NCBI GenBank assembly: GCA_964612055.1
Contig: CAZTBI010000002.1
Coordinates: 163,529-227,528 of the forward strand
Direction: 5' to 3'
Source: an uncultured Bdellovibrionales bacterium
GTDB lineage: Bacteria; Patescibacteriota; Minisyncoccia; Moranbacterales; UBA1568
DNA: 64,000 bases
The notes beneath the pieces were generated by a model. It was not told the DNA's origin. It made no database searches and worked only from the letters and a program-made list of their open reading frames with translations. Both the position numbers and the translations under genes were made by a program. Below are positions 1,546 to 33,154 of the stretch, piece after piece (position 1 is the first letter of the stretch; each line of letters begins with the position of its first letter).

Positions 1546-1809
1546 ATGAATACATCCAAGCAAAAAATCGAACGACGCCTCAAGATCATTGCTGGCCAGG
1601 TGAGAGGGCTAGAGGAGATGGTGGCCAAAGATACCTACTGTATTGATGTCATCACCCAGACCTCGGCTGTGAAGCAGGCATTGACCGTGATCGAGGATCT
1701 CATGATGGAGAGTCATCTTAGTACGTGTGTGATCAATCAGATCAAGAATGGGAAAGAAGAAAAAGCCAAAGCAGAGATCTTGAAGGTCTATCAACTCAAG
1801 CGAAAATAA
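1546..1809 (+). CDS. csoR: CsoR/RcnR-family copper-sensing transcriptional repressor
   Basis: 87-aa all-helical protein with conserved Cys/His (YCIDV...ESHLSTC); heads a copA operon. Confidence 0.8.
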
Positions 1810-1814
1810 TACCT

Positions 1815-4118
1815 ATGGAGACAAAACAAACCTACGGAGTGAAAGGAATGCATTGTGCCTCGTGCGCTAGCATCATCGAAAAGACTTTCAAGAAAGTGGA
1901 GGGAGTAGCGGAGGTCTCTGCCAACTACGGCAATGAGAGCGTGGCTGTTTCGTACGATGAGATGAAAACCAACCCTCACCACTTATCAAAAACACTCGAG
2001 CCGCTAGGTTACTCGCTTATCATTCCCGAAGAACAAACAGCCGAGTCCATGGGTATGAGCGCAGATGAGCATGCGGCGCACCTCGGGTTGAATCAAACAA
2101 AGAAAGAAAAACTGGCCGAGCTTGCCACGATGAAGACCCAGATTCTTTCTGTTATCCCCCTGGCTATTTTCAGTATTTTTCTCATGGGCTGGGAAATCTT
2201 GGCACGCTTTGAAGTGATCCTCCCGCCACCATATATCTGGAAGGAATTTTTTCATCACCTGCTTCCCATCATGGCGACCTACGTTTTGTTCGTTGTGGGT
2301 AAGCCATACTTGCTCGGTTTCTACCGATTTCTCCGTTATGGCAAAGCCAATATGGATACACTCATTGGTATCGGCACCACAGCTGCTTTCCTCTATAGTT
2401 TCATTCTCTCGGCTTTTGAAGAGACGCTGCGACCGTACCTCGATGTCGAAAATATGTATTACGATGTGACGATTGTCGTCATCACCTTTATCGCCCTCGG
2501 GAAATATTTGGAAGCACGTTCAAAGCTCCGGACTGGTGACGCTATCGAAAAACTCTTGAACCTTCAGGCCAAGACCGCCCTTGTTACTCGCGACGGAAAA
2601 GAAATGGAAATACCGGTGACGGAAGTAGTAGTTGGTGATCTTATCGTGGTAAAACCTGGTGCCAAAATTCCAGTCGATGGGGTGCTCACGCTCGGGTCTT
2701 CGTATATTGATGAATCGATGGTGACGGGTGAACCGATGCCGGTGAACAAGGCTATCGGCGATAGCGTGGTAGCTGGTACGGTCAATACCAGTGGCGCCTT
2801 TACCTTTCAAGCGACCAAGGTTGGGGGAGCGACTTTCCTTTCGAGTATTATCAAAATGGTGCAAGAGGCCCAAGGGTCGAAAGCACCGATTCAGGCTCTT
2901 GCCGACCGGATCTCGAGCGTGTTCGTACCGGTGGTACTGGTGATCGCGTTTTTGACGCTTGGCACCTGGCTTGTCGTAGGGACTCAGTACTTTGGATTTT
3001 CTCAGGCGCTTTCCTATGGGCTGACCTCATTTGTCGGTATCCTCATTATTGCTTGTCCTTGCGCGCTCGGACTGGCCACCCCGACGGCTATCATTGTTGG
3101 AGTGGGGAAGGGTGCCAAAGAAGGTATTCTGATCAAGGATGCGGCGACATTGGAAAAGCTCCATCAAGCAACGGTAGTGGTCGTTGATAAGACCGGGACA
3201 CTCACTCGGGGTAAACCAGAACTGACGAAACTCCAGAATTTTTCTGATCAGAGTGATGACGAACTTCTCTCGATCTTTGCGTCACTTGAAAGTCAATCAG
3301 AACATCCGATCGCTCATGCCATCATCAAAAATGCGGAAGAGAAACATATCGCTTTTGCCACACCAGAAAATTTCTCGGCCATCAAGGGGAAGGGAGTTCG
3401 GGGTGAAATTGGAGGAAAAGAATATTTTCTTGGAAATAGAAAACTGATTCAAGATTTCGGATTGTCTTTTGACATGACTTCTCTCGAGGAAGAGACGAAA
3501 ACAGGGAAGACGCCGGTCCTCTTGGCAACCAAAGAACGAGTGCTTGGTGTCGCGTTGGTTGCTGATGCTTTGAAAGATGAAGCCAAGGCTTCGGTCGCGG
3601 CACTTCACGCGCTCGGGATCAAGGTGGTTATGCTCACAGGGGATGATCGTAATACGGCGCAGCATATTGCAGCGCAGGTTGGTATCGATGAGGTTTTTGC
3701 CGAAGTTTTGCCTGATGAGAAACTCGCGAAAATTAAAGCACTCCAACAAGCAGGCGAGGTAGTAGCGATGGCAGGGGACGGGGTGAATGATGCTCCAGCT
3801 CTCGCCCAGGCCGATATCGGTATTGCTATGGGAACAGGCACTGATGTGGCGATCGAATCAGCGGGCATCACGCTCCTTCACGGTGATATTTCGAAACTGG
3901 TGAAAGCGATCAAATTATCAAAGCTCACTATGAGAGGAATTAAGCAAAATCTCTTCTGGGCCTTCGGTTATAACATCATTGGCATTCCGCTCGCTGCTGG
4001 AGTATTCTATCCAATTTTTGGTTGGCTCCTCTCGCCAGTCTTTGCGGGTCTCGCCATGGCACTTTCCAGTGTCTCGGTCGTCGGTAACTCGCTCCGTCTC
4101 AAAACGAAAAAACTCTAA
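1815..4118 (+). CDS. copA: Copper-translocating P1B-type ATPase
   Basis: N-terminal HMA motif GMHCASCA; CPC in TM6 ([12 protein letters not shown]); DKTGTLT; [10 protein letters not shown]. Start moved to the ATG at 1815, 6 nt after the csoR stop. Confidence 0.9.
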
Positions 4119-4122
4119 GTCT

Positions 4123-5142
4123 ATGAAAACTTACACTTTCCATGTTTCAGGCATGCACTGCCACTCGTGTATTCTCCTTACCGAGAGTGAGCTCTCAGAA
4201 TACCCAGGCGTGACCAAGGCGCACTCGAGTCTGAAGACACATTCAGTCACTATTACCGGTGATTTTGGTGACAAGGCGCCAGCCGCGATAGCCGAAGAGC
4301 TCAGTCAGGTACTACAGAAACATGGCTATACCCTTTCGCTCGAGAAACAGGAAACGAAAAAAGAATGGTCACAATTCAAAGTAGCCGTACCGCTAGCACT
4401 GCTTCTCGTCATACTGTTTATCGGTCTGCAGAAAACAGGGCTGGTCAATCTGGTGAATACTGATTCGGTTTCGTACGGGACAGTGTTTTTGATCGGGATC
4501 ATTGCGTCGCTCTCGACTTGTATGGCAGTGGTCGGTGGGCTGGTACTTTCTGTTTCGGCTACCTTTGCCAAGGAGGGGGACAAAGTGAAACCGCAGCTCC
4601 TCTTTCATGTCGGAAGACTTGTTTCCTTCTTTATCTTAGGTGGAGTGATTGGCGCTGTCGGTGCCAACTTTACCTTGAGTACGACGGCGACATTTGTGCT
4701 GAGTCTTCTCATCGGTCTCGTCATGCTCATTCTCGGTATCAACCTGCTTGATATTTTCCCGTGGGCCAAGCGTTTGCAGCCAGCCATGCCAAAATTTTTT
4801 TCGAAGCACGCGCTCGGAGTAGCTCGTTTCAATCACACGCTCACGCCACTCTTTATTGGTATTGCTACCTTCTTTCTGCCATGTGGCTTCACGCAGTCGA
4901 TGCAGCTCTATACACTCTCAACGGGGAGCTTCTTTTCGGGCGGACTGACAATGCTCACCTTTGCACTGGGGACACTGCCGGTCTTAGCACTTATTAGTTT
5001 CAGCTCCTTCAGCATAGAGCGCAGCGCCAAAAAGGGACTCTTCTTCAAAACCGCTGGTCTGATAGTGATCTTCTTCGCACTCTTCAATCTCGTAAATAGT
5101 CTGGTTGTTATCGGTCTCATTCCACCGATCTTTAATTTCTAA
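4123..5142 (+). CDS. HMA (heavy-metal-associated) domain fused to a polytopic DsbD_2/TauE-like membrane domain
   Basis: N-terminal GMHCHSC metal-binding fold, then about 8 TM helices with intramembrane Cys (LSTCMAV, FLPCGFTQ). Start moved to the ATG at 4123, 5 nt after the copA stop. Confidence 0.6.
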   Translation: MKTYTFHVSGMHCHSCILLTESELSEYPGVTKAHSSLKTHSVTITGDFGDKAPAAIAEELSQVLQKHGYTLSLEKQETKKEWSQFKVAVPLALLLVILFIGLQKTGLVNLVNTDSVSYGTVFLIGIIASLSTCMAVVGGLVLSVSATFAKEGDKVKPQLLFHVGRLVSFFILGGVIGAVGANFTLSTTATFVLSLLIGLVMLILGINLLDIFPWAKRLQPAMPKFFSKHALGVARFNHTLTPLFIGIATFFLPCGFTQSMQLYTLSTGSFFSGGLTMLTFALGTLPVLALISFSSFSIERSAKKGLFFKTAGLIVIFFALFNLVNSLVVIGLIPPIFNF

Positions 5143-5153
5143 GCTCTCGTTCT

Positions 5154-5555
5154 ATGAAAGTATTTTTTGGTTTCGTTGTCGTCCTCGTTCTTCTCATGGG
5201 TGGATATCTGGTGATGAATATTGCCGGAAAAGGAGAGGGTGAGGCGACTAATCCTCTGGTCGCGGCAAACAACGTCAGCATTGTTGATGGGAAACAGATT
5301 GTCGAAATCCGGGCCAAGGGAGGCTATCTCCCAAGAAAGAGTGTGGTGAAAGCTGGCATGCCAACTATCTTGCGGGTGAATACTGCTGGAACATTTGATT
5401 GTTCTTCAGCTATTCGGATTCCCAGTCTTAGGGTCAGTCAGACCCTACCGGCTACCGGTGTGACCGAGATCGAGCTCGGGAGTCTGGAGCCGGGAACGCT
5501 TCAGGGAAATTGCGGTATGGGCATGTACCCCTTTGAGATATCTGCTGAAAATTAA
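5154..5555 (+). CDS. Cupredoxin-like domain protein (membrane-anchored)
   Basis: N-terminal TM; C-terminal C...GNCGMGMY motif typical of small cupredoxin-like proteins found in cop operons. Confidence 0.5.
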   Translation: MKVFFGFVVVLVLLMGGYLVMNIAGKGEGEATNPLVAANNVSIVDGKQIVEIRAKGGYLPRKSVVKAGMPTILRVNTAGTFDCSSAIRIPSLRVSQTLPATGVTEIELGSLEPGTLQGNCGMGMYPFEISAEN

Positions 5556-5558
5556 AAC

Positions 5559-6062
5559 ATGAAATTCCTTCCTTATCTTATTTTTGGATTGGTGCTCCTC
5601 GCCGTGATGGAAGGGATAGTTTGGTTCGTTCTTCGTTCCGGTTCCGAAACTCCTTCGGACGTGCCGGTGGTCGAAGAGGTGTTGCCAGTAACCCAATTAC
5701 CAGTGACTCCGGCGACCAAGGAAGAAACGAAAGCGAACGTTGAGAGCGGAACTTTTCCGGAGCCGAGCGTAGAGGTAGTGAATGGCGTCACGGAACGGAC
5801 GATTCATATCGGGGTGCGGCAGTGGGAATGGGATCCCAAGGTCATCCGTGCCAAAGAAGGGGAGCGAGTCCGTCTCATCATTCACAATGCTGACGTGCGT
5901 CATACGCTGGTTGTTCCGGCACTTCAGATTGATATCGATATTCCACCCGATGGCGCAGTGGCGGATTTCATGGCCACGAAAAAAGGTACCTTTGATTTCC
6001 TCTGTGGCACCTACTGCGGTGTCGGACACGCGGAGATGCAGGGGACACTTGTGATAGAATAG
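5559..6062 (+). CDS. Cupredoxin-like domain protein (membrane-anchored), CuA-like CxxxCxxxH site
   Basis: N-terminal TM; FLCGTYCGVGHAEMQG resembles CuA/cupredoxin copper ligands. Confidence 0.55.
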   Translation: MKFLPYLIFGLVLLAVMEGIVWFVLRSGSETPSDVPVVEEVLPVTQLPVTPATKEETKANVESGTFPEPSVEVVNGVTERTIHIGVRQWEWDPKVIRAKEGERVRLIIHNADVRHTLVVPALQIDIDIPPDGAVADFMATKKGTFDFLCGTYCGVGHAEMQGTLVIE

Positions 6063-6083
6063 AGAAGATTTGAGATAAAAACT

Positions 6084-6593
6084 ATGGATATTTTGTCACA
6101 CGGGCTCTATGGGGGAGTGGCCTTTGGAAGGAAGAGCAAGAAAAGTTTCTGGTTGTCATTCTTTTTTGGTATCGCGCCGGATCTTTTCTCCTTTGGATTA
6201 TTTACGGCGAGTGTCTGGCTGGGGCTGACACATGGATTGGATTGGTCTGCTGGGCCACCTGACGAGAAGCTGATCCCGCAGTATGTCCATACGCTCTACA
6301 ATTTCACGCACAGTTTTGTTGTTTTTGCGGCTGCCTTTGGTGTGGTCTGGCTCATCCGTCGCAAGCCTTTGTGGGAAATGCTGGCATGGCCACTTCATAT
6401 TCTGGTTGATATTCCGACCCATTCGGACAGATTCTTTCCGACACCGTTTCTTTGGCCAGTTTCGGATTATCACGTGAACGGGCATCCCTGGAGTAGTCCC
6501 GAGATTTTTATTCCCAACGTCATTCTCATCATCAGTCTCTACCTTTGGTTCTATGTCATCAAACCATGGCGGAAACGGACAGGAAATTCCTAA
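6084..6593 (+). CDS. DUF457/YdjM-like membrane-bound metal-dependent hydrolase
   Basis: Starts MDILSHGLYG; conserved HILVDIPTH; multi-TM. Confidence 0.45.
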   Translation: MDILSHGLYGGVAFGRKSKKSFWLSFFFGIAPDLFSFGLFTASVWLGLTHGLDWSAGPPDEKLIPQYVHTLYNFTHSFVVFAAAFGVVWLIRRKPLWEMLAWPLHILVDIPTHSDRFFPTPFLWPVSDYHVNGHPWSSPEIFIPNVILIISLYLWFYVIKPWRKRTGNS

Positions 6594-6700: not shown

Positions 6701-7327
6701 ATGAAACACAAACAACATAAAAAAACAGAGTATCAAACACAAAAGCCTCTCTTCCAGGCTGCTTCTTTGTCTTCCATGACACTTTCGAGTGATGTCTTTT
6801 ATGGAGCCTTTCTTTCGCTCTCCTTTGTCGTTGCCACACTTCTTTTTGGTGCTGGTACTAGTCTCGCCAATGTAGAGATCGCTTTTCCAGAAAAAAGTCC
6901 TCGTCAGGTGGTCTTTGAGCACAAGATGCACAAGCTTGTTACTGGCTATCCGATCGAGGCTATGACACCCTATATCGACGAACAAGACGAAACGACCGCT
7001 GCTTATCTAGTGAGTATCGCTAAGAAAGAAAGTAACTGGGGCAAGCGTGTTCCTCGTGCCGAAGATGGTTCTGATTGTTACAATTACTGGGGCTATCGTG
7101 GGGCAGGGAGTCGTGGTATCGCCATGGGTCATGGTTGTTTCGGGAGTCCCGAAGAGGCTGTTGGCGTGGTTGGCGGACGACTCGATACCCTGGTTAATGA
7201 GTACCAGTTCCGTACCCCGGCCGAGATGGTGGTCTGGAAATGCGGCTTTAGCTGTGATGGCCATAGCGGCCAGAGCGTCAAAAAATGGATCACTGACGTG
7301 GGGTACTACTACAACAAAATGCAGTAA
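6701..7327 (+). CDS. Secreted protein, paralog A of a 3-member family with a GH73-like glucosaminidase signature
   Basis: N-terminal TM; IAKKESNWGKR ... CYNYWGYRG ... GHGCFGSPEEAV ... WKCGFSC; compare GH73 ESGWG / NNLFGIK. Four conserved Cys. Confidence 0.45.
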   Translation: MKHKQHKKTEYQTQKPLFQAASLSSMTLSSDVFYGAFLSLSFVVATLLFGAGTSLANVEIAFPEKSPRQVVFEHKMHKLVTGYPIEAMTPYIDEQDETTAAYLVSIAKKESNWGKRVPRAEDGSDCYNYWGYRGAGSRGIAMGHGCFGSPEEAVGVVGGRLDTLVNEYQFRTPAEMVVWKCGFSCDGHSGQSVKKWITDVGYYYNKMQ

Positions 7328-7330
7328 TCT
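7273..7330. repeat. 58-bp direct repeat, copy 1 (3' end of paralog A including the TAA stop)
   Basis: Exact 58/58 identity with 8533-8590. Confidence 0.9.
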
Positions 7331-7339
7331 TCTCTGAAA

Positions 7340-7364
7340 CGACCGATTGAAAACCGGTCGTTTT
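7340..7364 (+). terminator. Intrinsic terminator (cgaccg-N9-cggtcg-TTTT)
   Basis: Perfect 6-bp stem plus T-run immediately after repeat copy 1. Confidence 0.5.
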
Positions 7365-7369
7365 CTGTA

Positions 7370-7398
7370 TTGACAAAGAGCCTTTTTCGCTCTAGAGT
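7370..7398 (+). promoter_or_regulatory. Sigma70-like promoter TTGACA-N17-TAGAGT driving the inserted GC-rich gene
   Basis: Hexamers read directly; RBS AAGGAG lies 7 nt before the ATG at 7443. Confidence 0.4.
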
Positions 7399-7442
7399 GC
7401 CTCCAGATCAATCCTGATCTTTTCCTTCACAAGGAGACTTCC

Positions 7443-8459
7443 ATGAAGTCCATATCAATAGCAGCAGGACTGTTTCTGGTTGCTTTCTCCGTAGTGGCGG
7501 CGGAAGTGGCTTGTCCGGAACTCACGGCGCCCCAGCGTGTCGCCGGATACCTTTCCTGGATGGGATTTTTCCAGGTCATTGGTGTTACCACTTTGACCGC
7601 CGGCGTGATGTATGTCTTTCGGGGCGTACTGACAGTGATCTGGGGTAGGTTGTGGGCTGTCATTCGCGACATCGCCGACGTACTGGCTCACGTGTTCAGT
7701 CTCGGGCTCGTTGTGGTTGGCGCCTGGGTGCCAGAAGAATACCGCCTGTGGCCAGTGCTCGGCGGGTGCCTCCTCTTCGCGGGGAGCGTCTTCCTCACTA
7801 TCTGGCTACGCAAGTTGAAGGGCGACAGTCCGGCTGGCATATACGGCCTCCTGACGTTCGTGTGGGGGTGTGTTGCGCTCTACTATGGAATGCCTGAAGT
7901 TGGGTTCATAGCGGTGGCCGCTCTCATGGGTCTTCTCGGCTACTCCATCGTCGTCACGCCGTTTTGTTACGGCTTTGGCTTCCGTGATGAACCAACCATG
8001 GTACGGACCACCAGTGCAGCACTCGTGATCCTGGTGTTCTACTCAGTGGCCCAGCTTTTTCCGTCAACTGTTCCGGCACTGCCAGCGGTGTTTGCTACCG
8101 GAGCGTTCTGGCTCGGTTCTTTGGTCGCTTTCACGGGCCTCCTCATCGTTTCGAACAAGCTGTACTTTCAGGAGAAGAAGGATTCCACCTACATGTGGAT
8201 GCAGGCAGTGACCCTTCTGGTCTACCTCGGCGGCACTGCCTACGGCATGATCTTCGGCATCAATGCGCTTGCGGGGATGGCGGGCACCTTCCTGGTGCTC
8301 TACGCCGCCGCCAAGCTGGTGGAGGTCGAAACGAATGGTTACATCACCTTCGGGCTCAAGCTCATGGCCATCGGCGGAATCTTCGCCGGAGCCTGGTGGT
8401 ACGCGACGGCGCATCAGGAAGTGGTCATGAAGTACCTGACCACGACGCTGCCGGTCTAG
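7443..8459 (+). CDS. GC-rich polytopic membrane protein, unknown function (about 10 TM)
   Basis: 338-aa ORF with strongly G/C-biased third positions, unlike the flanking genes; hydrophobic throughout; no recognisable motif. Confidence 0.6.
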   Translation: MKSISIAAGLFLVAFSVVAAEVACPELTAPQRVAGYLSWMGFFQVIGVTTLTAGVMYVFRGVLTVIWGRLWAVIRDIADVLAHVFSLGLVVVGAWVPEEYRLWPVLGGCLLFAGSVFLTIWLRKLKGDSPAGIYGLLTFVWGCVALYYGMPEVGFIAVAALMGLLGYSIVVTPFCYGFGFRDEPTMVRTTSAALVILVFYSVAQLFPSTVPALPAVFATGAFWLGSLVAFTGLLIVSNKLYFQEKKDSTYMWMQAVTLLVYLGGTAYGMIFGINALAGMAGTFLVLYAAAKLVEVETNGYITFGLKLMAIGGIFAGAWWYATAHQEVVMKYLTTTLPV

Positions 8460-8478
8460 GCTGCGCTAAGCAGCGACA

Positions 8479-8514
8479 AGGTTTCTTGTGAGATATCTCG
8501 CGAGGAACCTTTTT
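8479..8514 (+). terminator. Intrinsic terminator after the inserted gene (aggtt...aacct + TTTT)
   Basis: Inverted repeat with inner palindrome gagatatctc, followed by T-run. Confidence 0.4.
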
Positions 8515-8532
8515 CTTTTGTGCAGGAGAGGG

Positions 8533-8590
8533 GAGCGTCAAAAAATGGATCACTGACGTGGGGTACTACTACAACAAAATGCAGTAATCT
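8533..8590. repeat. 58-bp direct repeat, copy 2 (non-coding remnant)
   Basis: Exact copy of 7273-7330. Confidence 0.9.
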
Positions 8591-8615
8591 CCCTCTATAG
8601 ATGGATAATTCCCAA

Positions 8616-8641
8616 AGACTGTCACAAAAGACAGTCTTTTT
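8616..8641 (+). terminator. Intrinsic terminator (agactgtc-acaaaa-gacagtct-TTTTT), probably the original terminator of paralog A
   Basis: Perfect 8-bp stem plus T5 directly after repeat copy 2. Confidence 0.55.
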
Positions 8642-8739
8642 CGTTATTATTATGTTTGACCAAACGTCAAAAATGTGTTATTTTTAGATGCGCTAAAAAG
8701 GAGTTTTTAGGAAGTTACTTTAGCCAAACTTTGTTCTAA

Positions 8740-10125
8740 ATGAGGAAACACACACTCTACAAAAAAGATGACTTTAAGTTGAAGCATCGAGCGGTCATTC
8801 ATTTCATTGTCGCTGCCATTTTCCTTATATTTATAGGAAAATCTTTTTTTGTTGAGTCTGATTACTTCTTACTTTATATTTACGGCGTATTAGTTACGCT
8901 TGTGCTCGGTATCAACTTTTACGTTGCTATTTTTCGATATGAAGACCCTGCAGTCTTGGCTGGGAAAATAGAGCAGAAGAAACGTGACAGGGGAGCGAAG
9001 ATTGAAGAACCATTCGTAAGTTTCATGGTTGCTGTGTATAACGAAGAAGTTGTTATAGAACAATGCATACTTTCTCTACTTGATCAGACGTATCAAAACA
9101 GAGAAATTATATTTGTGAATGATGGCAGTACCGATGGAACAGCCAAGATTCTGGATGACTATGCTCGCTTAGGAAAAATCAAGGTCATTCACCAGAAAAA
9201 TTCTGGAAAGAAGAGAGCATTAGGGAGGGCTATGAGAGAAGCAAAAGGAAATATATTTGCTTTTTCAGATAGCGACTCTGTCTGGGCAATTGATGCTATT
9301 GAAAGAATAGTCCCTATTTTTAATGTCTTTCCAGATGTGGGGGGGGTAAGCGGTCATTTCCGACTTAAGAATTCTTTGGTCAATATACTTACTAAGGCTC
9401 AAGACTCTTGGGCTGAAGGACAGTTCGCTATTCGTAAAGCCTTCGAGAGTTATTATGGATCTGTTTCTTGTATTTCTGGCCCACTAGCTGTTTTTCGAAA
9501 AGAAGCCATCTACAACTTTATTCCAGCATGGGAGCAAGATAGGTTTCTTGGACAAGAATTTAAATTTGCAACCGACCGCACCCTAACGGGATTCTTGTTA
9601 GGAAACAAGTATATTAGTAAAGATCTAAAAACAAAATATGCAGATGATGATTGCGTGAAGCAGGTTGATTATCCAGAATGTGATTGGCAGGTAGTATACG
9701 CAAAGTCTGCTAAATCCTGGACTATTCTTCCTGAAACCTTTAAGGGAATAGTTAAGCAACAAGTTCGATGGAAGAAGAGCTTTATTAGGAATACTTTCTT
9801 TACAGGTTCTTTCTACTGGCGGAAACCATTTCCTGCTGCTCTTGTGTACTATCTTCATGTACTGTTTGTTCTTTTCGGTCCAATCGTTGCTTTTCGTCAT
9901 CTTGTTTATCTTCCGCTGCACGGTGACCCATGGTCTATCGTTTTGTATCTAGGAGGAATTATATTTGTGGGGTTTATGTTTGGTTTTGCATATAAATTAG
10001 AAAACAGAGATTCGCATCTATGGATATACCGACCTATAATGAGTCTTCTTTCAACCGTTGTTTTATCTGGGCTTATCTATTATTCAGCTCTAACGATTAG
10101 AAAAATGGTATGGCATCGAGGATAA
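8740..10125 (+). CDS. Processive family-2 glycosyltransferase (NodC / hyaluronan / chitin-synthase-like)
   Basis: TM helices at both ends; VYNEE...DQTY; DGSTDGT; DSD; QQVRWKKS (QxxRW). The gene is strongly AT-rich. Confidence 0.8.
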   Translation: MRKHTLYKKDDFKLKHRAVIHFIVAAIFLIFIGKSFFVESDYFLLYIYGVLVTLVLGINFYVAIFRYEDPAVLAGKIEQKKRDRGAKIEEPFVSFMVAVYNEEVVIEQCILSLLDQTYQNREIIFVNDGSTDGTAKILDDYARLGKIKVIHQKNSGKKRALGRAMREAKGNIFAFSDSDSVWAIDAIERIVPIFNVFPDVGGVSGHFRLKNSLVNILTKAQDSWAEGQFAIRKAFESYYGSVSCISGPLAVFRKEAIYNFIPAWEQDRFLGQEFKFATDRTLTGFLLGNKYISKDLKTKYADDDCVKQVDYPECDWQVVYAKSAKSWTILPETFKGIVKQQVRWKKSFIRNTFFTGSFYWRKPFPAALVYYLHVLFVLFGPIVAFRHLVYLPLHGDPWSIVLYLGGIIFVGFMFGFAYKLENRDSHLWIYRPIMSLLSTVVLSGLIYYSALTIRKMVWHRG

Positions 10126-11615
10126 CCCTAGGAAGAATATGGCTTTTTGTTCTTCCAATAAGCATATTCTTTGGAACATTTTTTACGCTGTTTAGCCTAG
10201 AACGTTCACAGCCATTTGTTTATGATGAAGCGGTCTATTTGACGAAGGCGCGAGCATGGCAGATAAATTCGCCTGCAGATGAATTTAGAATCTACAGGCC
10301 GGTTGGTATGCCTGTAATAGGAAGGGCATTATTAGAGTTTGGTAATTCTGAAGCTCATCTTCGATTTTTCGGTGTGTTTTTTGGAGCGAGTACCATACTG
10401 CTTCTCTATTTGATTTTTACAAGAATATTTGGCTGGTTAGTGGGGGTATCTGTATCATTAGTGACGACTTCATCATCATTGTTCTTGTATAATGCACCTC
10501 AATTTTTGAATGATGTTCCGTCGTCCGGTCTCCTGTTCGGATCTCTGATTGCAGTTTGGATATGGCATGAGTCGAAAGGGAATAGTAATTGGATCTATTT
10601 ATTTGGGCCATTTTCGGCAGCAGCATTTTATTTACGATACGGAGCTTCGAGTACTCTAGTGTTGATAGCGATAGTCTCCGTTTTTGTGTTCTGGAATAGC
10701 ATAAGGACGGGGGTTAAAGATTTTGAGAAAACTATTCTTTCCGGTATCTTCTCGATTTTTCTGTTTGCCCCACATTTCATACAGTCAGTTGTTGTTACGC
10801 ACGATGTGTTAGGGATATTGAAGCGAAGTGGTGGGGCAGCGGGAAGAGAATATCTAGGGGAGGGTCTTTTAAGATATATTCAATGGCTCCCTCACGATCT
10901 GGGGGGTTGGTTATTTGGTACGCTAGCTATTTTCGGAATTCTTACCACATTCTATTTACTTCTCAGAAAAAATTGGACAGAACAACATAGAGGGTTAGCG
11001 TGGATTGGATTAATTGGCGTTTCGAATCTTATTTTAACAGGAGTCTTGGTTCATGCGGAACCAAGATACGTATTTTTTTCAGTGACTCTTCTTTGTGGCG
11101 TAGGTACTGCTAGTATTTTTTTGATACTCTCGAAATTTCAAACATCGAAGTTTTTTGTTGCAACATTTTTCTTTGTGGCTTCAGTGATTTCTGGTTACTT
11201 TAATTATTACGATGTTAATGCGGCTTTAGGCGATAAGGCAAATGGCGTAAGAGAATTTTATGTTGACGCTGCATCAGCAATACGTAACGATATTTCTTCT
11301 GGAAAAGACTGCGCGATATGGTCTGCATCATCTCGTCCTGAGTTGTCATGGTATGCTGGCTGCCATACGATTTCGATTGATACAAAAGAGGCTTTTGTTA
11401 AGGACTTTCTTACTAATTTTAGAAGACCATGCTACAGTGTTGTTTTTTCAAAGTTAGGAGAAAAGCAACTTGATGAGAACGTCGCTAAAGAGTTTGGCAT
11501 TGAATTATCAGAGATATTTCGCGCAAAGACATCGCAATCATTGGGGGATATTGTTGTGTATAGACTAACAGATCAAGGAAAGATCAGGCTTCAGGCCGTA
11601 ACCGAAAAAGAATGA
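10110..11615 (+). CDS. GT-C fold membrane glycosyltransferase (PMT_2/ArnT-like), about 12 TM
   Basis: Polytopic; early loop motif VYDEAVYLTKARAW resembles the DE motif of PMT/ArnT enzymes; AT-rich. Confidence 0.45.
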   Translation: MASRITLGRIWLFVLPISIFFGTFFTLFSLERSQPFVYDEAVYLTKARAWQINSPADEFRIYRPVGMPVIGRALLEFGNSEAHLRFFGVFFGASTILLLYLIFTRIFGWLVGVSVSLVTTSSSLFLYNAPQFLNDVPSSGLLFGSLIAVWIWHESKGNSNWIYLFGPFSAAAFYLRYGASSTLVLIAIVSVFVFWNSIRTGVKDFEKTILSGIFSIFLFAPHFIQSVVVTHDVLGILKRSGGAAGREYLGEGLLRYIQWLPHDLGGWLFGTLAIFGILTTFYLLLRKNWTEQHRGLAWIGLIGVSNLILTGVLVHAEPRYVFFSVTLLCGVGTASIFLILSKFQTSKFFVATFFFVASVISGYFNYYDVNAALGDKANGVREFYVDAASAIRNDISSGKDCAIWSASSRPELSWYAGCHTISIDTKEAFVKDFLTNFRRPCYSVVFSKLGEKQLDENVAKEFGIELSEIFRAKTSQSLGDIVVYRLTDQGKIRLQAVTEKE

Positions 11616-11632
11616 ATTTATAAGCTATTCTT

Positions 11633-13249
11633 ATGCAACATGAATATGGCCCTAAAAGTTATAGGAGGATAGAGATGGTCTTCTTTGTTCTGGCTGTTTT
11701 TGTTTTTATTATCATTTCAGCGAAGTATTTCTCTTCCCCGTCTGGCGGTAGCATTTTGACACATACAAAGGATGCTATTTTGAAAAAGATGAATGCGTAT
11801 TATCTTGAAAAATCATCTAATGATATTGTGTCGCAACAATCTCTAATACTCAAAATTAGTGATGATGGCCGGTGGAGGATCTTTAATGTTGATGGAAGCG
11901 AATCAGATCTATATTCTGTAGAGAATCTTGATGGAAAAATTTTGATTTATGGATTAAAAAAAGGAGTTGCTCAAGATTTATATGTTGACGGGGTGCGAAG
12001 CTACTTCACTAGATCTGAAATGGTCAGTACGGACATACCTCACGATGTTATAAATGGTGACACTTTTCTTGTTCCAGAGCAGGAAGATCTTTTCCCTATT
12101 TTTGGATACCACAATATCTTTGATAGAGAGGAGGATATCAGAGATCCGTATCTGGATATCAGGAAGAGCGATTTTGAGAGGCAGGTACAGGTGTACAATC
12201 ATGAAATTAATTGCCGATGGGCGACTCTTCGTGAGGTTGTTGAAAATTTTATTCTAGTAAATAAGAAATTACCTAGGAATGTATGTGTAATGACTTTTGA
12301 TGATGGAAGGAAGAATAATTATGAAATAGCATTTCCAATTCTTAAGGAAAATGGTATTCGCGCTACATTTTATATTATTTTTGGCCGACTAGGGAGCGGT
12401 ATATACATGACTAAGAATGAGGTAGCTGAATTGTTTCGTGCTGGAAATGAAATGGGTTCGCATACTATGACAGGCGGAAGCCTGGTTGATACAAGCTGGT
12501 TTACTGGTGAATTTACTGATAACGAGCTTAAGAATCAACTCCAAGACTCTAAGGAGATTTCTGAGGTATACTCTTATAACTCTAGAACTTTTGCCTATCC
12601 ACTTGGAGATTGGAATGATAAAGTTGTTACTGCTATCAAAGATGCTGGATATATTGCTGCTCGTGATACTGAGAAGGATGAACAATGGAGAGATCACCGC
12701 GCATTAGCAATAAGTGCAACAGAGGATTTTATATGGCATTTGAATTATTATAAGCCGGAGCTTCGTTTTGATGATGAGATATATCAAAATATGCGCTATA
12801 GCGGTTGGTGGCAGTTCGAAGAAGGCAACCTTGTTTCCGGAGATGAAAATGGAAATGTTTTAATTAAACATGACGTTGATATTCCTAATCAGGGCTACGG
12901 GGTTGTTGTACTCGTAGATCCGAATGATTCAAATAGGAATGTGTTTCTTTTAGAACAAGATGGCCAGTACGTTATAGATATGTTACTTGCAAAAGATCAA
13001 TCGAAAAATATCGATCCATCAGTTTTTATTGATGGTATTAATCTGCCGATTCAGAAGGATGATTCACAAACTTGCACTACACAGGGCAAGGGCGTCTATT
13101 GCCATTATACGATTGAAGCTAGTCTTTCACAGGGCAGGCACACTTTGGATATTATTAATAATAGTGGAATAATGAAACTAGATCGTTTCCGCATTTATAG
13201 ACGCGCTTTAGTGGAGCAAGAATACAAGTTAACAATAACGAAGGATTAA
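11633..13249 (+). CDS. Polysaccharide deacetylase (CE4/NodB homology domain) with N-terminal TM and extra C-terminal domain
   Basis: VCVMTFDDGRKNNYEIAFPILKENGIRATFYI (TFDDG motif); HTMTGGS; AT-rich. Confidence 0.75.
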   Translation: MQHEYGPKSYRRIEMVFFVLAVFVFIIISAKYFSSPSGGSILTHTKDAILKKMNAYYLEKSSNDIVSQQSLILKISDDGRWRIFNVDGSESDLYSVENLDGKILIYGLKKGVAQDLYVDGVRSYFTRSEMVSTDIPHDVINGDTFLVPEQEDLFPIFGYHNIFDREEDIRDPYLDIRKSDFERQVQVYNHEINCRWATLREVVENFILVNKKLPRNVCVMTFDDGRKNNYEIAFPILKENGIRATFYIIFGRLGSGIYMTKNEVAELFRAGNEMGSHTMTGGSLVDTSWFTGEFTDNELKNQLQDSKEISEVYSYNSRTFAYPLGDWNDKVVTAIKDAGYIAARDTEKDEQWRDHRALAISATEDFIWHLNYYKPELRFDDEIYQNMRYSGWWQFEEGNLVSGDENGNVLIKHDVDIPNQGYGVVVLVDPNDSNRNVFLLEQDGQYVIDMLLAKDQSKNIDPSVFIDGINLPIQKDDSQTCTTQGKGVYCHYTIEASLSQGRHTLDIINNSGIMKLDRFRIYRRALVEQEYKLTITKD

Positions 13250-13258
13250 TTTTTTCTA

Positions 13259-14224
13259 ATGAAAAAAAACGCAAAGATTTTTTTAGGAACGGTAATTTTA
13301 ATAGTTGTTGTTTTTTTGTATCAAAAATTCAATTCTCAAGAAGAAGCTAGCCAGACTCAAGGTATGAATGTTTCAGTTTCAGCTAACAACGCAATAGTTC
13401 TTAATCAGGATACCTCAATTAATAGTCAGATAGATGGGGATGGGTTAACAGGATTAAGTATTCTTGACCAAGAATCCAGTAAGACTGAATTCAGCGAGGA
13501 TTTCTCTAGGGATGCTCTTCTTGTAGAAACCGGCTCAATGAATGAGAGTGTTTCTGCGAATTGGTGGCTCAATTCTGGAGCATACCTCTCTATTAGTAAG
13601 GGTCTTGGCGAAACTGTTCAAGGAGAGCTTTCTAAACAGGATGAATGGAGGATAAAATATAAAGATTACAATTCTAGCGAAACCGATGACGGGTATCATC
13701 CACAAAACATCTTCAGGCTTGTAACAAGATATCAGTGGAAGAATTTTCTTCAGGAAAGTTATTTTAAAATTAATCGCTATATTCTTAGCCAAGACAAGGC
13801 TCGGAGTGAGTCAAATGGCCTGCTTCTTTTTAACCGATACCAAGATGGTGACAACCTCTATTATACGGGGCTCAGGGTTGATGGTACTGTTGTTATAAAA
13901 AAGAAAGTTAAGGGAATATACTACACGATGGCTCAGGAGCCTCTCTATCCGGGGAAGTATGATAGAAAGAGTAAGCCGAATCTTCTACCCATTGAAGCCT
14001 GGATAGGATTACAGAGTGAGGTACGAGATAATCCCAACGGAACTGTCTCTATAAAAGTGTACCGAGATAAAGATCGCTCTGGAGACTGGCAGCTTATTTT
14101 GACTGCGATAGACGATGGAAAAAAATACGGGGGAGCGGCTATAAAAAATGAAGGATACGCTGGTATCCGAACGGACTTCATGGATGTCGAGTTTGATGAC
14201 TACAAAATTGAGGAGTTGAAGTAG
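13259..14224 (+). CDS. Secreted/anchored protein, unknown function; possibly a beta-sandwich carbohydrate-binding protein
   Basis: N-terminal TM; no catalytic motif recognised; last gene of the AT-rich block. Confidence 0.5.
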   Translation: MKKNAKIFLGTVILIVVVFLYQKFNSQEEASQTQGMNVSVSANNAIVLNQDTSINSQIDGDGLTGLSILDQESSKTEFSEDFSRDALLVETGSMNESVSANWWLNSGAYLSISKGLGETVQGELSKQDEWRIKYKDYNSSETDDGYHPQNIFRLVTRYQWKNFLQESYFKINRYILSQDKARSESNGLLLFNRYQDGDNLYYTGLRVDGTVVIKKKVKGIYYTMAQEPLYPGKYDRKSKPNLLPIEAWIGLQSEVRDNPNGTVSIKVYRDKDRSGDWQLILTAIDDGKKYGGAAIKNEGYAGIRTDFMDVEFDDYKIEELK

Positions 14225-14312
14225 GTCAATCTCCCGATTGACAGAACTAGCATTTCCTTGTACAATACACTATCATTCTTTTACGGTAACCCATTCTTGA
14301 GAATGGGGTTTT

Positions 14313-16640: not shown

Positions 16641-16648
16641 CACCACTT

Positions 16649-18238: not shown

Positions 18239-18260
18239 AAAATTTTTGAACAAAAAGAAA

Positions 18261-18290
18261 GCCGAGCTTTTGGACAGCTCGGCTTTATTG
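18261..18290. terminator. Bidirectional intrinsic terminator (gccgagc-N9-gctcggc, A-run upstream and T-run downstream)
   Basis: Perfect 7-bp stem; serves the chitinase gene on + and the small ORF on -. Confidence 0.55.
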
Positions 18291-18307
18291 TGGACGGCGG
18301 GTTCTTT

Positions 18308-18376
18308 TTACAAGAGACCGACTTGTCCGAAGAAGGTGAGGGTAATCACCGGCAGGAGGGCGAGGAGGAACGCCAT
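18308..18376 (-). CDS. Candidate 22-aa hydrophobic peptide MAFLLALLPVITLTFFGQVGLL
   Basis: GAGGAAG Shine-Dalgarno 5 nt upstream of the ATG; ORF ends at the bidirectional terminator; absent from the ORF track (too short). Confidence 0.3.
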   Translation of the reverse strand: MAFLLALLPVITLTFFGQVGLL

Positions 18377-21218: not shown

Positions 21219-21247
21219 GCCTCTCCAGATGGAGGGGCTTTTTTTGT
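21219..21247 (+). terminator. Intrinsic terminator after the PPIase gene (gcctctcc-agat-ggaggggc-T7)
   Basis: 8-bp stem with one G-U pair plus T-run. Confidence 0.55.
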
Positions 21248-21332
21248 ATGAAAAAGAAAAAACGGCTACTTCGAGGAAGTAGCCGCTTGGGCTTTGGTCT
21301 GGTTCGACCGAGGCTTAGAACTGGCGGTGAAG
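21243..21332. repeat. About 90-bp direct repeat, copy 1 (terminator module)
   Basis: About 98% identical to 22125-22214 (two 1-nt indels). Confidence 0.9.
21251..21285 (-). terminator. Minus-strand intrinsic terminator inside repeat copy 1 (cggctacttc/gaagtagccg + T-run)
   Basis: Perfect 10-bp stem; terminates the 68-aa and 142-aa membrane protein genes. Confidence 0.6.
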
Positions 21333-21337
21333 TTTCT

Positions 21338-21544
21338 TCACTTCCGGCTGGGCATGGGGGTGCTGTAGACGATGCCGATGCCGATGAAGAGAGGCAGGAG
21401 ACCGAACTTCATCACCCAATACGCAGAGTCCTTCCAAATCGGAGCAAATGTCATGACTGCATCAGCCGCGCCGATGAGTACTGCGCCAAGGACTGCAACA
21501 CACCCTCCCTGTAGCACTCGCTTTGTATCTTTGTCCATCTTCAT
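21338..21544 (-). CDS. Small membrane protein (68 aa, 2 TM), unknown function
   Basis: In-frame ATG with GGAG RBS (AAAGGAGTCAGCTATG); the ORF-track version (21338..21817) is over-extended into the upstream gene. Confidence 0.45.
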   Translation of the reverse strand: MKMDKDTKRVLQGGCVAVLGAVLIGAADAVMTFAPIWKDSAYWVMKFGLLPLFIGIGIVYSTPMPSRK

Positions 21545-21576
21545 AGCTGACTCCTTTCGAGTCGGTTGAGCTGGCT

Positions 21577-22005
21577 TTACTTTCCAGCGATGAGGTAGAT
21601 GCCGATACCGGCGAGGATGATGCCGGCAACTTGGCGGAAAGAGGGAAATGACCAGGCAATGACCGAACCGAGGAGTGTCGCGAACACCACCATCATGATG
21701 TTGATAGAGGCGACGAAGATCCAGCTCGGGATGGTCGGATCGACCGACTTGGCGCCGTAGTAGTAGACGGCGATCCCGTTCACGATCCCGACAACCATCA
21801 TGATGCCGAAGTGCCACGAATGGAAGAGCGGGCTTTTCACCATGTCATTCCAGCCAATGGCCAGGTTGCCGATCAGTGTGCCGATGAGAACGAGGATAGT
21901 CACCCACGCTGCCGGCGTACCAGAAATCTTGGCCAGAAGCGGCCAGATCACCATACCAAAGGCAATCAGGGCCGCTGAATACAGATAAGAGGGGATTGTG
22001 CTCAC
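21577..22005 (-). CDS. Membrane protein (142 aa, 4-5 TM), small DMT/EamA-like or unknown
   Basis: GTG start with GGAGG RBS 5 nt upstream; hydrophobic with GxxxG motifs; GC-rich. Confidence 0.5.
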   Translation of the reverse strand: MSTIPSYLYSAALIAFGMVIWPLLAKISGTPAAWVTILVLIGTLIGNLAIGWNDMVKSPLFHSWHFGIMMVVGIVNGIAVYYYGAKSVDPTIPSWIFVASINIMMVVFATLLGSVIAWSFPSFRQVAGIILAGIGIYLIAGK

Positions 22006-22061
22006 GATTTCCTCCGAGAAGGACGAGTTGTTAAGGAGAGTTCATAGAATATGAACCTAAC

Positions 22062-22090
22062 ATGATAGCATATTTTTTATAAAAAGTCAA
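22062..22090 (-). promoter_or_regulatory. Sigma70-like promoter TTGACT-N17-TATCAT for the 142-aa/68-aa gene pair
   Basis: Read on the minus strand; 17-bp spacer. Confidence 0.45.
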
Positions 22091-22124
22091 TAGGTGGTAG
22101 AGAGAGTACTCTTAGTAATGGTTG

Positions 22125-22214
22125 TTTGTATGAAAAAGAAAAAACGGCTACTTCGAGGAAGTAGCCGCTTGGCTTTGGTCTGGTTCGACCGAGGCTTAGA
22201 ACTGGCGGTTGAAG
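22125..22214. repeat. About 90-bp direct repeat, copy 2 (last codons plus terminator of the 275-aa secreted protein gene)
   Basis: About 98% identical to 21243-21332. Confidence 0.9.
22133..22167 (-). terminator. Minus-strand intrinsic terminator inside repeat copy 2
   Basis: Same 10-bp stem hairpin plus T-run as copy 1. Confidence 0.6.
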
Positions 22215-22972: not shown

Positions 22973-23067
22973 GGTGCGGCCCCTCCTTCGAGGCCTAATT
23001 TTGAAGTTGCTGGGTTGCGTCATTCCCTCTCGGGAATGGATTTCCCAGTACCGGAGGATGACATGAA

Positions 23068-31824: not shown

Positions 31825-31877
31825 CGTGAAGTCTCAACTCGTAATAGTCTCAAGCCGCAGGGTATCGCCCAGCGGCC

Positions 31878-31908
31878 TTTTCTTTTTTCAAACAAAACAA
31901 GTTCGAAT
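31878..31908 (+). repeat. Conserved 3' box, copy a (TTTTCTTTTTTCAAACAAAACAAGTTCGAAT), preceded by hairpin gccgc...gcggc
   Basis: Shares the core with the boxes at 32392 and 33096. Confidence 0.8.
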
Positions 31909-31980
31909 CTGGTGTGGACAAACTAAGAAAAAGAGGGTACTCTTCTAAGTCCAATCTCGGACTTGTTCTTCGGGGGAAGT

Positions 31981-32352
31981 ATGCAATATCTGAAGTGGTA
32001 TGGAGGCCCGATCACGGGATTCTATGGCCGGATCGAAATCAATCGGTACAAAAATGAGGGTACCAAGCTTCATTTGACGAATCTTCCTTGGTCCGCCCTC
32101 GTCGAAGAACGCGCGAAGAACCCATTTCCTGACGTTCGCGTCGATCCTCATGGGAGTGACTATGAGTACGAAAAGAGGGCAAATGAGCTCATCGAGCTCT
32201 TGAACACTACCGATGACATCATGGTGTTCAAGATCGCTATGAATACCCTCATCAGGCTCGTTCAGGGCGAGAGGGCGTCACCTATCTATCCCGGGGAACA
32301 GTATCACCCGGACCTTTTGGAGGAAGCCATCAGGCTTTCGGAAGAGGAGTAA
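31981..32352 (+). CDS. Hypothetical protein (123 aa), GC-rich cassette b
   Basis: ATG at 31981 behind GGGGGAAG; no recognised motif. Confidence 0.45.
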   Translation: MQYLKWYGGPITGFYGRIEINRYKNEGTKLHLTNLPWSALVEERAKNPFPDVRVDPHGSDYEYEKRANELIELLNTTDDIMVFKIAMNTLIRLVQGERASPIYPGEQYHPDLLEEAIRLSEEE

Positions 32353-32391
32353 GTCGTCTACCGCAGAAGTCGCATGGCAACACCCGGCGGC

Positions 32392-32424
32392 TTTTTTCTT
32401 TTCTCAAACCAAACAAGTCCGAGC
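32392..32424 (+). repeat. Conserved 3' box, copy b (TTTTTTCTTTTCTCAAACCAAACAAGTCCGAG)
   Basis: Identical to box c at 31 of 33 positions; preceded by a GC hairpin. Confidence 0.85.
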
Positions 32425-32488
32425 TTTATCTAAGAAGTGGGGCAGCTTCTAAAAGAGGTTTTAGTAAGCATCTTTTTGTATTTACATA

Positions 32489-32517
32489 TTGACTAACCTT
32501 CAAAAAAGAAGTATAGT
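32489..32517 (+). promoter_or_regulatory. Sigma70-like promoter TTGACT-N17-TATAGT for cassette c
   Basis: Read directly. Confidence 0.45.
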
Positions 32518-32571
32518 ACTAAGTCCTTAAATCTAAGGGCGAGTTCTTCAATCTAACCTGGGGAGATACCC

Positions 32572-33054
32572 ATGGCAACATACAGCGCCCCTTATTACCC
32601 CGCGCGCATCATCGAGACAGTTTCTCAGGTGATTGCGCTTGGTAGGCAGGCTCAACTTTTCGACCACCATAAGAGCGATGGGTGGTTCACCCTTGCGCTC
32701 AAGGATGGTGCCACGGTCTTGGGTTTTGCGGTACCTGGACCGTTGTCTGCCACGCTGGCATTTGACTATCGGCATCACTCAGAGGAGCAGGTCTCGTGGC
32801 TTCGGTCACACGAACTTCTCACGAGCAATGTTTGGGTCGAACACAACGTGAGCGAAGCGGTGGCTGCGCAGGGCTACGATTTCTACTTCAGCTTTGTCTC
32901 AGCGCTTCCGCGGGAATGGAATGAGGCCATTGTGGTGGTCTCGGCAGTGTGTATGCGTCAGTTCAACCAGAGTGTCATCGACAATCCGGCGTGGCATCTC
33001 AAGAGCAACCCGCATATCAACGAACTTCTCGAAGTGGCGCATTGGACCAAATGA
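32572..33054 (+). CDS. Hypothetical protein (160 aa), GC-rich cassette c
   Basis: No recognised motif; third positions G/C-biased. Confidence 0.5.
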   Translation: MATYSAPYYPARIIETVSQVIALGRQAQLFDHHKSDGWFTLALKDGATVLGFAVPGPLSATLAFDYRHHSEEQVSWLRSHELLTSNVWVEHNVSEAVAAQGYDFYFSFVSALPREWNEAIVVVSAVCMRQFNQSVIDNPAWHLKSNPHINELLEVAHWTK

Positions 33055-33095
33055 CTCGGTCATGGTCACAAAACATAGAAGAGCCTGGCCAGCTC

Positions 33096-33128
33096 TTTTT
33101 TCTTTTCTCAAACCAAACAAGTTCGAAT
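33096..33128 (+). repeat. Conserved 3' box, copy c (TTTTTTCTTTTCTCAAACCAAACAAGTTCGAAT), preceded by hairpin agagc...gctct
   Basis: 31/33 identical to box b. Confidence 0.85.
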
Positions 33129-33154
33129 TTTCTTTCAGGAGCGAAATACCCCTC

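Follow-up and report, generated by a model that had tools for sequence, protein, structure and literature searches.

The DNA analyzed here is a window of 64,000 nt (positions 163,529-227,528, forward strand, of contig CAZTBI010000002.1 in GenBank assembly GCA_964612055.1) from a source labeled as an uncultured Bdellovibrionales bacterium and placed by GTDB in Patescibacteriota; Minisyncoccia; Moranbacterales; UBA1568. Within this window a resident gene for a 208-aa protein, referred to as pA, is followed by an insert of 1202 bp (7331-8532) that is bracketed by two direct copies of the 58-nt tail of pA. The insert has a content of guanine and cytosine (GC) of 56.5%, compared to a window mean of about 48%, and carries a single gene together with its own promoter and terminator, a unit called the cassette in the following. 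The features of the locus, all of them on the + strand, are:

6701..7327, +, pA, open reading frame (ORF) of 208 aa, member of a very large Patescibacteria/Moranbacteria family with weak resemblance to FlgJ-type muramidases
7273..7330, +, repeat copy 1, the functional 3' end of pA: 52 coding nt (17 codons), the TAA stop and 3 more nt
7336..7364, +, terminator 1, hairpin and T-run next to the left boundary of the insert (-13.1 kcal/mol, z -3.6)
7370..7398, +, cassette promoter TTGACA-N17-TAGAGT, 10 of 12 consensus positions
7431..7437, +, ribosome-binding site AAGGAGA, 5 nt before the ATG, read from the sequence
7443..8459, +, cargo gene, predicted polytopic membrane protein of 338 aa from an uncharacterized family, GC content at third codon positions (GC3) 0.72
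8478..8511, +, cassette terminator, 15-bp stem and then a T-run (-22.4 kcal/mol, z -5.1)
8533..8590, +, repeat copy 2, non-coding duplicate of the pA tail
8614..8639, +, terminator 2, directly after copy 2 (-13.5 kcal/mol, z -7.8), homologous to the hairpin after pA in the contig L016 of a relative
8656..8684, +, promoter-like site of the downstream glycosyltransferase gene, kept in L016 after the pA terminator

The two copies of the repeat are identical at 58 of 58 positions and are spaced by 1260. When copies were counted at up to 3 mismatches, the 58-mer occurred only twice in the window, and no match arose in 100 dinucleotide-preserving shuffles. A preliminary description of this stretch had reported that the last 58 nt of the gene, including its TAA, recur exactly, and had considered that the 58-mer might be a widespread repeat unrelated to the gene end; the identity was confirmed, and no copies besides these two were found in the window. 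The upstream copy leaves pA intact, and the downstream copy is a dead duplicate. The fold of copy 1 is no better than that of shuffled sequences (z -0.85). Homologs of pA are numerous (n = 1655), several of them being named at their source as Candidatus Moranbacteria or Moraniibacteriota, and the relation to FlgJ consists of one NCBIfam match at an E value of 1e-3 only. The designation of the resident gene as a paralog also held, as two further members lie in the same window (about 57524-57928 and 58583-58984; 55-57% aa identity). These paralogs are encoded in tandem (56987-57940 and 58166-58996), the identity extends over their C-terminal 135 residues, and their N-terminal parts are longer and unrelated. 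The motif AKKESNWGKR is kept in the pA paralogs and gives the weak match to models of FlgJ-type muramidases.

All components that had been listed for the insert (a terminator, TTGACA-N17-TAGAGT, a gene for 338 aa and a second terminator) are present, the promoter being of the sigma-70 type. The third codon positions of the cargo gene are indeed rich in G and C, its GC3 of 0.72 comparing to 0.48-0.56 in the neighbors upstream and 0.32-0.37 in those downstream. In genomes where the cassette occupies the site, terminator 1 is predicted to end the transcription of pA.

An assembly artefact, either a chimeric join or two strain haplotypes concatenated at the shared 58-mer, is extremely improbable as an origin of this arrangement. 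The length of the repeat is near common assembler k-mer sizes, and graphs built with k=31 do break there. Logan contig L001 (SRR16481186) corresponds to window positions 7301-8562, that is, to the insert and 30 nt of repeat on each side, and ends 30 nt (k-1) into the repeat, as would be expected where a k=31 graph branches at a real repeat; contig L002 ends at 7330, and L012 and L013 begin at 8561. However, L001 shows 31-mers across both junctions in the source sample, and contigs from three other sequencing runs, L003 (SRR12762275), L004 (SRR12762323) and L005 (SRR12762274), lead without a break from the pA tail through the cassette into terminator 2, each in one contig and with 98.9-99.3% identity to the window. 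In these three contigs the two copies are not identical but differ at 2 nt, so that the path is unambiguous. Both junctions (7330/7331 and 8532/8533), at which the preliminary description had allowed for a chimeric assembly, are therefore spanned by single contigs from three other samples, and no chimera is seen. In L003 the changes in copy 2 are GTG GGG to GTT GGC, synonymous third positions in the frame of pA that fall within an allelic tract, and they look like another allele of pA, not like random decay. Gene conversion between the copies was also considered, and the 0 differences observed against about 1.5-2 expected are numbers too small to argue from.

Some relatives carry the cassette behind pA, and others lack it. 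In L016 (SRR30605901; pA 82% identical in aa), the stop codon of pA is followed by the homolog of terminator 2 and then by a promoter region TTGACC...TATTTT, without any cassette. Positions 3239-3392 of L016 align with window positions 8533-8697 at 79.4% nt identity (165 nt), and the TTGACC...TATTTT region is the counterpart of the region before the glycosyltransferase gene of the window; the promoter-like site at 8656..8684 thus is part of the ancestral pA flank. Terminator 2 is the ancestral terminator of pA, because in L016 pA runs straight into its homolog. The empty site and the original terminator of the resident gene, both anticipated in the preliminary description, are consequently found together in this relative. 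A Joint Genome Institute (JGI) contig of P0033, with a pA of 80% identity and a next gene of at least 349 aa that lies 163 nt past the stop, is probably a second empty site. In L029 (pA 83%), unrelated genes are found downstream. Sites occupied with the same terminator 1 and promoter occur in L017 (98% in pA), L028 (85% nt) and L006 (74% nt); a homolog of terminator 1 stands at the equivalent position in L028 and L017, the promoter hexamers are kept in L006, L028 and L017, and the position of the cassette terminator is kept in L006.

The comparison of an occupied with an empty site locates the breakpoint. L028 (SRR33557406; occupied) and L016 (empty) show 5 differences over about 255 nt of the pA tail (about 98%), with 92% identity at fourfold-degenerate sites, and diverge fully from about 15 nt before the pA stop, within the region that matches the 58-nt repeat. 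At this point L028 reads ...CACTACTAC followed by GACAAAATGAAGTAA, terminator 1 and the cassette, and L016 reads ...CACTACTAC followed by AAAAAATTACAATAA and terminator 2. As the two contigs split inside the repeat region, the part of pA that moves along with the cassette appears to be no more than a short piece of its tail. An ordinary double-crossover import with kilobases of homology on the left would rarely end in the last few dozen bases of pA. The split fits a unit that moves with just a short stretch of the pA tail, in agreement with what is implied by the 58-bp repeat of the window. The C-termini of pA, NKMQ, DKMK and AKIK in occupied genomes and KKLQ, KKLQ and NKLQ in those without the cassette (occupancy being inferred for the last), agree weakly with a pA tail that is linked to the cassette.

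Besides the pA locus, every other ORF of the window with a GC3 of 0.64 or more lies in two further loci bracketed by repeats, except a doubtful ORF of 62 aa (21800-21988), which itself lies inside the second locus. These loci comprise:

21240..21328, -, second locus, distal repeat of 89 nt, with 1 mismatch and 1 indel relative to the other copy
21329..22121, -, second locus, insert of 793 bp with a promoter, a gene for a 142-aa EamA-like protein and a gene for a 69-aa membrane protein (GC3 0.755 and 0.64)
22122..22209, -, second locus, proximal repeat: last 4 codons, stop and terminator of the 275-aa gene 22196-23023 (GC3 0.79)
31875..33141, +, third locus, a 47-nt repeat in three copies (31875-31921, 32391-32437 and 33095-33141), 64-85% identical

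The repeats of the third locus each begin in the T-run of a terminator and enclose two small promoter-gene-terminator units, whose ORFs (31963-32352 and 32572-33054) have a GC3 of 0.64; with its array-like order, this locus seems to be an older product of the same process. A fourth example of a gene-tail duplicate behind an extra gene lies at 5532-7075 of L007, which derives from another Patescibacterium. There, a direct repeat of about 66 nt (5532-5600 and 7008-7075; 93% identical over a 43-nt core) has one copy in the 3' coding part of a CapK-like gene and the other directly behind the gene that comes next, which is a paralog. The repeat sets of the three loci of the window are unrelated to each other, and there is no sequence common to their cassettes; accordingly, a backbone shared by the three cassettes was sought and none was found. 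The unrelated repeats at several loci favor a homology process that is independent of sequence over three site-specific systems. As separate observations, the 275-aa ORF at 22196-23023 is a secreted-looking ORFan with 4 homologs only among 5.8 billion proteins, and the gene upstream of the third locus (31078-31824), which is similar to inosine monophosphate (IMP) cyclohydrolase genes, has a GC3 of 0.68.

Long target-site duplication would be another way to obtain such brackets: a foreign fragment would be caught at a staggered break (58 nt at pA, 89 nt at the second locus), with fill-in by a transposition-like enzyme or by end-joining. The copies at pA are identical with the insert exactly between them, the lengths vary by locus (58, 89 and about 47 nt) as variable staggers would give, and such an event could also account for how non-homologous GC-rich DNA was captured to begin with. 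However, neither terminal inverted repeats nor a transposase were found, the sequences of L028 and L016 part as early as about 15 nt ahead of the stop, inside the would-be target, which is unlike a clean insertion into an L016-like site, and copy 2 of L003, with its two synonymous changes in an allelic tract, fits a second pA allele better than a decayed duplicate. We regard this explanation as very unlikely.

Pfam scans of the approximately 50 large ORFs of the whole 64-kb window detected no integrase, transposase or other recombinase domain, in line with the earlier statement that no recombinase gene accompanies the cassette, and the window contains no tRNA and no match to an Rfam family. 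Among the candidates that were discarded are a tRNA, a transfer-messenger RNA (tmRNA) or a non-coding RNA (ncRNA) as attachment site, none having been found in the window; a transposon, as the ends of the insert align no better than shuffles and none of the three loci has terminal inverted repeats; and an attC-like structure, as the 58-mer has no notable symmetry or fold (z -0.85).

Site-specific integration was the second possibility offered by the preliminary description. In this case, the 58-mer would hold the att core for a tyrosine or serine recombinase that acts in trans and is encoded at another place in the genome or by a helper element, and the cassette would be a cis-mobilizable unit that leaves the site as a circle of 1260 bp and integrates anew at the 3' end of pA. 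Such a system would explain an exact repeat that overlaps and restores the 3' end of a conserved gene, the empty site in a relative with the breakpoint between occupied and empty alleles inside the repeat, and the occurrence of the cassette at one site in three diverged lineages (the window, L028 and L006). On the other side, no recombinase was found in the 64 kb, the other bracketed cassettes have unrelated repeats and nothing in common with the pA cassette, homologs of the cargo gene are found in unrelated contexts without long repeats, and the 58-mer lacks the symmetry or fold just mentioned. Taken together, we consider a site-specific origin unlikely.

Amino acid identities for the cassette and for its flanks are similar, 88% compared to 90% between the window and L028, and 76% compared to 67-88% between the window and L006. 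As the divergence of the cassette is like that of the flanks and the two copies in the window are nevertheless identical, either the repeat arose long after the cassette had become associated with pA, or the cassette has passed from one lineage to another. Between the window and L003 or L004 there are 0 differences over 7226-8188 and 16 over 8189-8646, and the sequences are unrelated past 8648. This pattern of differences indicates a recombination breakpoint inside the cassette and a swap point right after terminator 2, and the breakpoint inside the cassette in turn means that homologous exchange is active at the pA locus. The incoming haplotype might have been the cassette entering an L016-like site, or else a segment 'pA tail-terminator 2-glycosyltransferase' entering an L006- or L028-like site; the two are mirror images, and the data would fit both.

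The second of these directions can be developed into a separate explanation, according to which the cassette is an old, vertically inherited neighbor of pA and the downstream segment of about 9.7 kb (copy 2, terminator 2 and the glycosyltransferase genes, to about 18300) arrived from a relative as linear DNA, its right end recombining by homology and its left end, which by chance began 58 nt inside pA, being joined illegitimately behind the cassette terminator. In L006, the cassette that follows pA directly abuts the homolog of window positions 18308-19437, so that the window is about 9.7 kb longer there; the divergence of the cassette between the window and L006 or L028 is like that of the flanks; the repeat is far younger than the split of the window from L028 (0 differences compared to 15% divergence); and L003 departs from the window right after terminator 2, which would mark a swap hotspot. 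This explanation is nevertheless a mirror image of the one that we prefer, data fitting both alike, and it leaves the polymorphism between L028 and L016, the high GC3 of the cargo gene and its scattered contexts unexplained. It is judged unlikely as well. As an observation on the same segment, the stretch of about 8590-18300 is missing at the equivalent position in L006, and its promoter region follows pA in L016.

The repeat, the anatomy of the unit, the junctions in independent assemblies, the empty site and a presence/absence polymorphism with its breakpoint in the repeat region are direct observations. We read the two 58-bp copies as the seams that an insertion-duplication left at the 3' end of pA, and the explanation that we favor, with a confidence that is moderate, is that a moron-like cassette is exchanged among relatives and was joined to the site by a Campbell-type or one-ended insertion-duplication through short gene-tail homology and by host recombination. 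DNA from a relative with pA and the cassette would have recombined with a genome that carried pA, terminator 2 and the glycosyltransferase genes, with the crossover passing through or beside the last 58 bp of pA. The route may have been a single Campbell-type crossover of a circularized fragment or a linear, one-ended homology-facilitated illegitimate recombination, each with a presumed intermediate, and the agent would be the general recombination of the host after DNA uptake, not an enzyme encoded by the cassette or a site-specific one. The repeat would in turn permit precise loss of the cassette by recombination between the copies. An insertion-duplication that does not depend on a given sequence is favored because the repeats at different loci are unrelated, no recombinase and no structural motif were found, the gene tails are mosaic and breakpoints occur in and around the cassette. 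Of the earlier proposal of a Campbell-type or att-core integration, the footprint of integration has thus stood, in the form of the junctions and the empty site, and the enzymology may have been of either kind.

One-ended homology-facilitated illegitimate recombination occurs in transformable bacteria. Events of this type have been proposed for strings of orphaned 3' ends at rhs loci and at loci of type VI secretion systems (T6SS) (PMC5361080, PMC2935791), and in E. coli a single crossover of circular DNA with a homology fragment gives flanking duplications of 109-950 bp (PMC3240628). The case described here resembles Campbell-type insertion-duplication in that the insert is flanked by duplicated homology, the upstream gene is intact and no enzyme of the element is needed. 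It is unlike it in having occurred naturally, in a Patescibacterium that is uncultured, and in involving no more than 58 bp of homology and one gene as cargo.

Several points weigh against insertion-duplication by host recombination. A length of 58 bp is near the lower limit for an efficient RecA-dependent crossover, and a site-specific recombinase acting in trans would give an identical footprint. The model does not account for how the GC-rich gene was captured in the first place, in an event without homology. L006 is without a long second copy and has a 22-nt imperfect repeat including the pA stop (shuffle p about 0.004), the contig of L028 ends in the palindrome of the cassette terminator, short of the right junction, and in L007 no repeat surrounds the homolog of the cargo gene. 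As the cassette adjoins pA in L028 and L006 with a divergence (85% and 74% nt identity) like that of the flanks, it may be old at the pA site and have been lost in L016, not gained in the window. Finally, the comparisons rest on assembled contigs.

The cargo gene is the sole ORF of the insert, and its 338-aa product gave no Pfam or NCBIfam match. An AlphaFold model (predicted local distance difference test, pLDDT, of 84) is all-helical and corresponds to a polytopic membrane protein. The family comprises 876 clusters at 50% identity and two length classes; near relatives belong to Patescibacteria, and remote ones are encoded by a metagenome-assembled genome (MAG) of Vicinamibacterales (34%) and by a Rhizobium replicon (32%). 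A promoter and a terminator of its own accompany the gene in each of the Patescibacterial contexts (the window, L006, L007 and L011). The gene is richer in GC than its flanks in nearly all of 13 contexts (the window, L006, L007, L011, L015, L018 and L020-L027), so that the GC context of homologs, which the preliminary description had singled out for comparison, is the same almost everywhere. The GC3 of the cargo gene stays high although the members in Patescibacteria have diverged to about 40% identity, a persistent lack of amelioration.

In the MAG H51-bin007 (L007/L014, GCA_964361175.1), a homolog of the cargo gene with a GC3 of 0.79 is placed between rplB and rpsS (9884-11994), where together with its promoter, its terminator and two small ORFs on the opposite strand it interrupts the ribosomal-protein operon; a second insertion in this operon, of two genes without assignment, is found between rplE and rpsH. 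A scan of genome contigs for the cargo family returned two loci only, and eight further contexts from a metagenome scan had no long flanking repeat. The repeats seen at other copies of the cargo gene are a 14-nt exact one in L011 and a 30-nt promoter-like one in L018, and no long ones were found. Comparison of the cargo with 50,697 phage records gave no match. Carriage by phages or plasmids was examined and set aside, as there was no phage match and one match of 32% to a Rhizobium replicon, and as the viral nature of two IMG/VR contigs is unconvincing. These viral-labeled contigs, L018 and L019 (UViG_3300037483_000641 and UViG_3300037484_001152), carry a relative of the cargo gene with 35% identity, which is bracketed by the 30-nt exact promoter-like repeat (4788/6908), and the neighboring genes (epimerase, phosphoesterase and a fragment of the alpha subunit of DNA polymerase III) are not clearly viral.

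The unit shares features with several known systems. Phage morons, as described by Hendrix and Juhala, are independent promoter-gene-terminator units of deviant composition between phage genes. Like them, the cassette is self-contained, has a deviant GC content and is present or absent between collinear relatives. In contrast to morons, its neighbors are cellular (copper ATPase, cupredoxins, glycosyltransferases) and not those of a prophage, and the long direct repeat around it is not among the features that define a moron. Elements that are flanked by att sites, lack a recombinase and are mobilized in trans include the cis-mobilizable elements (CIMEs) of streptococci and the pseudo-staphylococcal cassette chromosome (pseudo-SCC) elements at the 3' end of rlmH. 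The pA cassette is similarly small, located at the 3' end of a conserved gene, flanked by direct repeats and without a recombinase, and tandem arrays would be possible in principle. However, typical att cores are shorter than the exact 58-bp repeat seen here, and unrelated repeats flank the other cassettes of the window; no recombinase-bearing element with the same att site was seen among the loci examined. Genomic islands, integrative and mobilizable elements (IMEs) and prophages likewise have direct repeats over the 3' end of a target gene, and an empty site as in L016, whereas here the insert contains no recombinase gene. Insertion sequences (IS), transposons and miniature inverted-repeat transposable elements (MITEs) differ in that terminal inverted repeats and a transposase are missing here and that the duplication is of 58 bp and not of 2-14 bp.

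Integron cassettes, including clusters of attC sites lacking integrons (CALINs), are also single-gene units between repeats, and the third locus resembles a short array. In the present case, by contrast, the repeats copy a local gene end or terminator and are not attC hairpins, no IntI is encoded among the approximately 50 ORFs of the window, and whereas integron cassettes are usually promoterless, the pA cassette has its own promoter, which is kept in relatives. In the arrays formed by C-terminal displacement at rhs and T6SS loci, incoming DNA is likewise anchored on the upstream gene and a 3'-end remnant is left downstream (PMC2935791, PMC5361080), but what remains there is a different toxin tip, orphaned together with its immunity gene, and here it is an identical 58-bp tail with an unrelated cargo. 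The minimal mobile elements of Neisseria (PMC3787668, citing Saunders & Snyder 2002) are replaced by a double crossover in two conserved flanks without duplication. The slot beside a conserved pA with differing content downstream in the window, L003, L006, L016 and L029 is alike, and so is the lack of mobility genes, exchange presumably occurring by transformation and homologous recombination; the 58-bp duplication present here and a right flank that appears not to be conserved are unlike it.

Further genes of the window surround the locus. Upstream of pA, a copper-handling cluster (1725-6593) encodes a CopA-like P-type ATPase, an HMA/DsbD_2 membrane protein, two cupredoxin/COX2-like proteins and a conserved membrane protein of 169 aa, and is syntenic in L006, L016 and the P0033 contig. 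Downstream, a block of low GC content (8740-14224; about 38%, GC3 0.32-0.37, compared to the window mean of about 48%) encodes a PgaC/IcaA-like GT2 protein, a PMT_2-family protein, a polysaccharide deacetylase and one protein without assignment. A SET-domain protein (PF00856, E 1e-23) is encoded at 174-665 in this small-genome bacterium. At 37572-41156 a protein of 1194 aa with five Laminin_G_3 (concanavalin-like) domains is encoded, and its gene contains four DNA repeats of about 700 nt that are 62-71% identical (37851-40256).

Patescibacteria (candidate phyla radiation) have tiny genomes with few recognizable mobile elements and seem to rely on the uptake of DNA, and their gain of genes is poorly documented. 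The parts of the arrangement described here are of known kinds, a moron-like cassette without recombinase and an insertion-duplication; what is distinctive is the clean evidence from occupied and empty sites and the recurrence at every GC-anomalous locus of the window. One could think of a dedicated cassette-capture process of Patescibacteria that puts GC-rich promoter-to-terminator units at the ends of transcription units and duplicates tens of target bases, integron-like in its outcome and working without attC or IntI, whose footprints would be the three bracketed loci of the window and the one in L007. We hold such a process to be quite improbable; if a dedicated enzyme were in fact responsible, this would be a new class of cassette system. 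The pA locus is a clean case of a single-gene unit with occupied and empty alleles, both junctions, a breakpoint in the gene-tail repeat and no mobility gene. The recurrence at loci of high GC3 points to insertion-duplication through short homology at gene ends as a route that these organisms may use repeatedly to add accessory genes and to lose them precisely.

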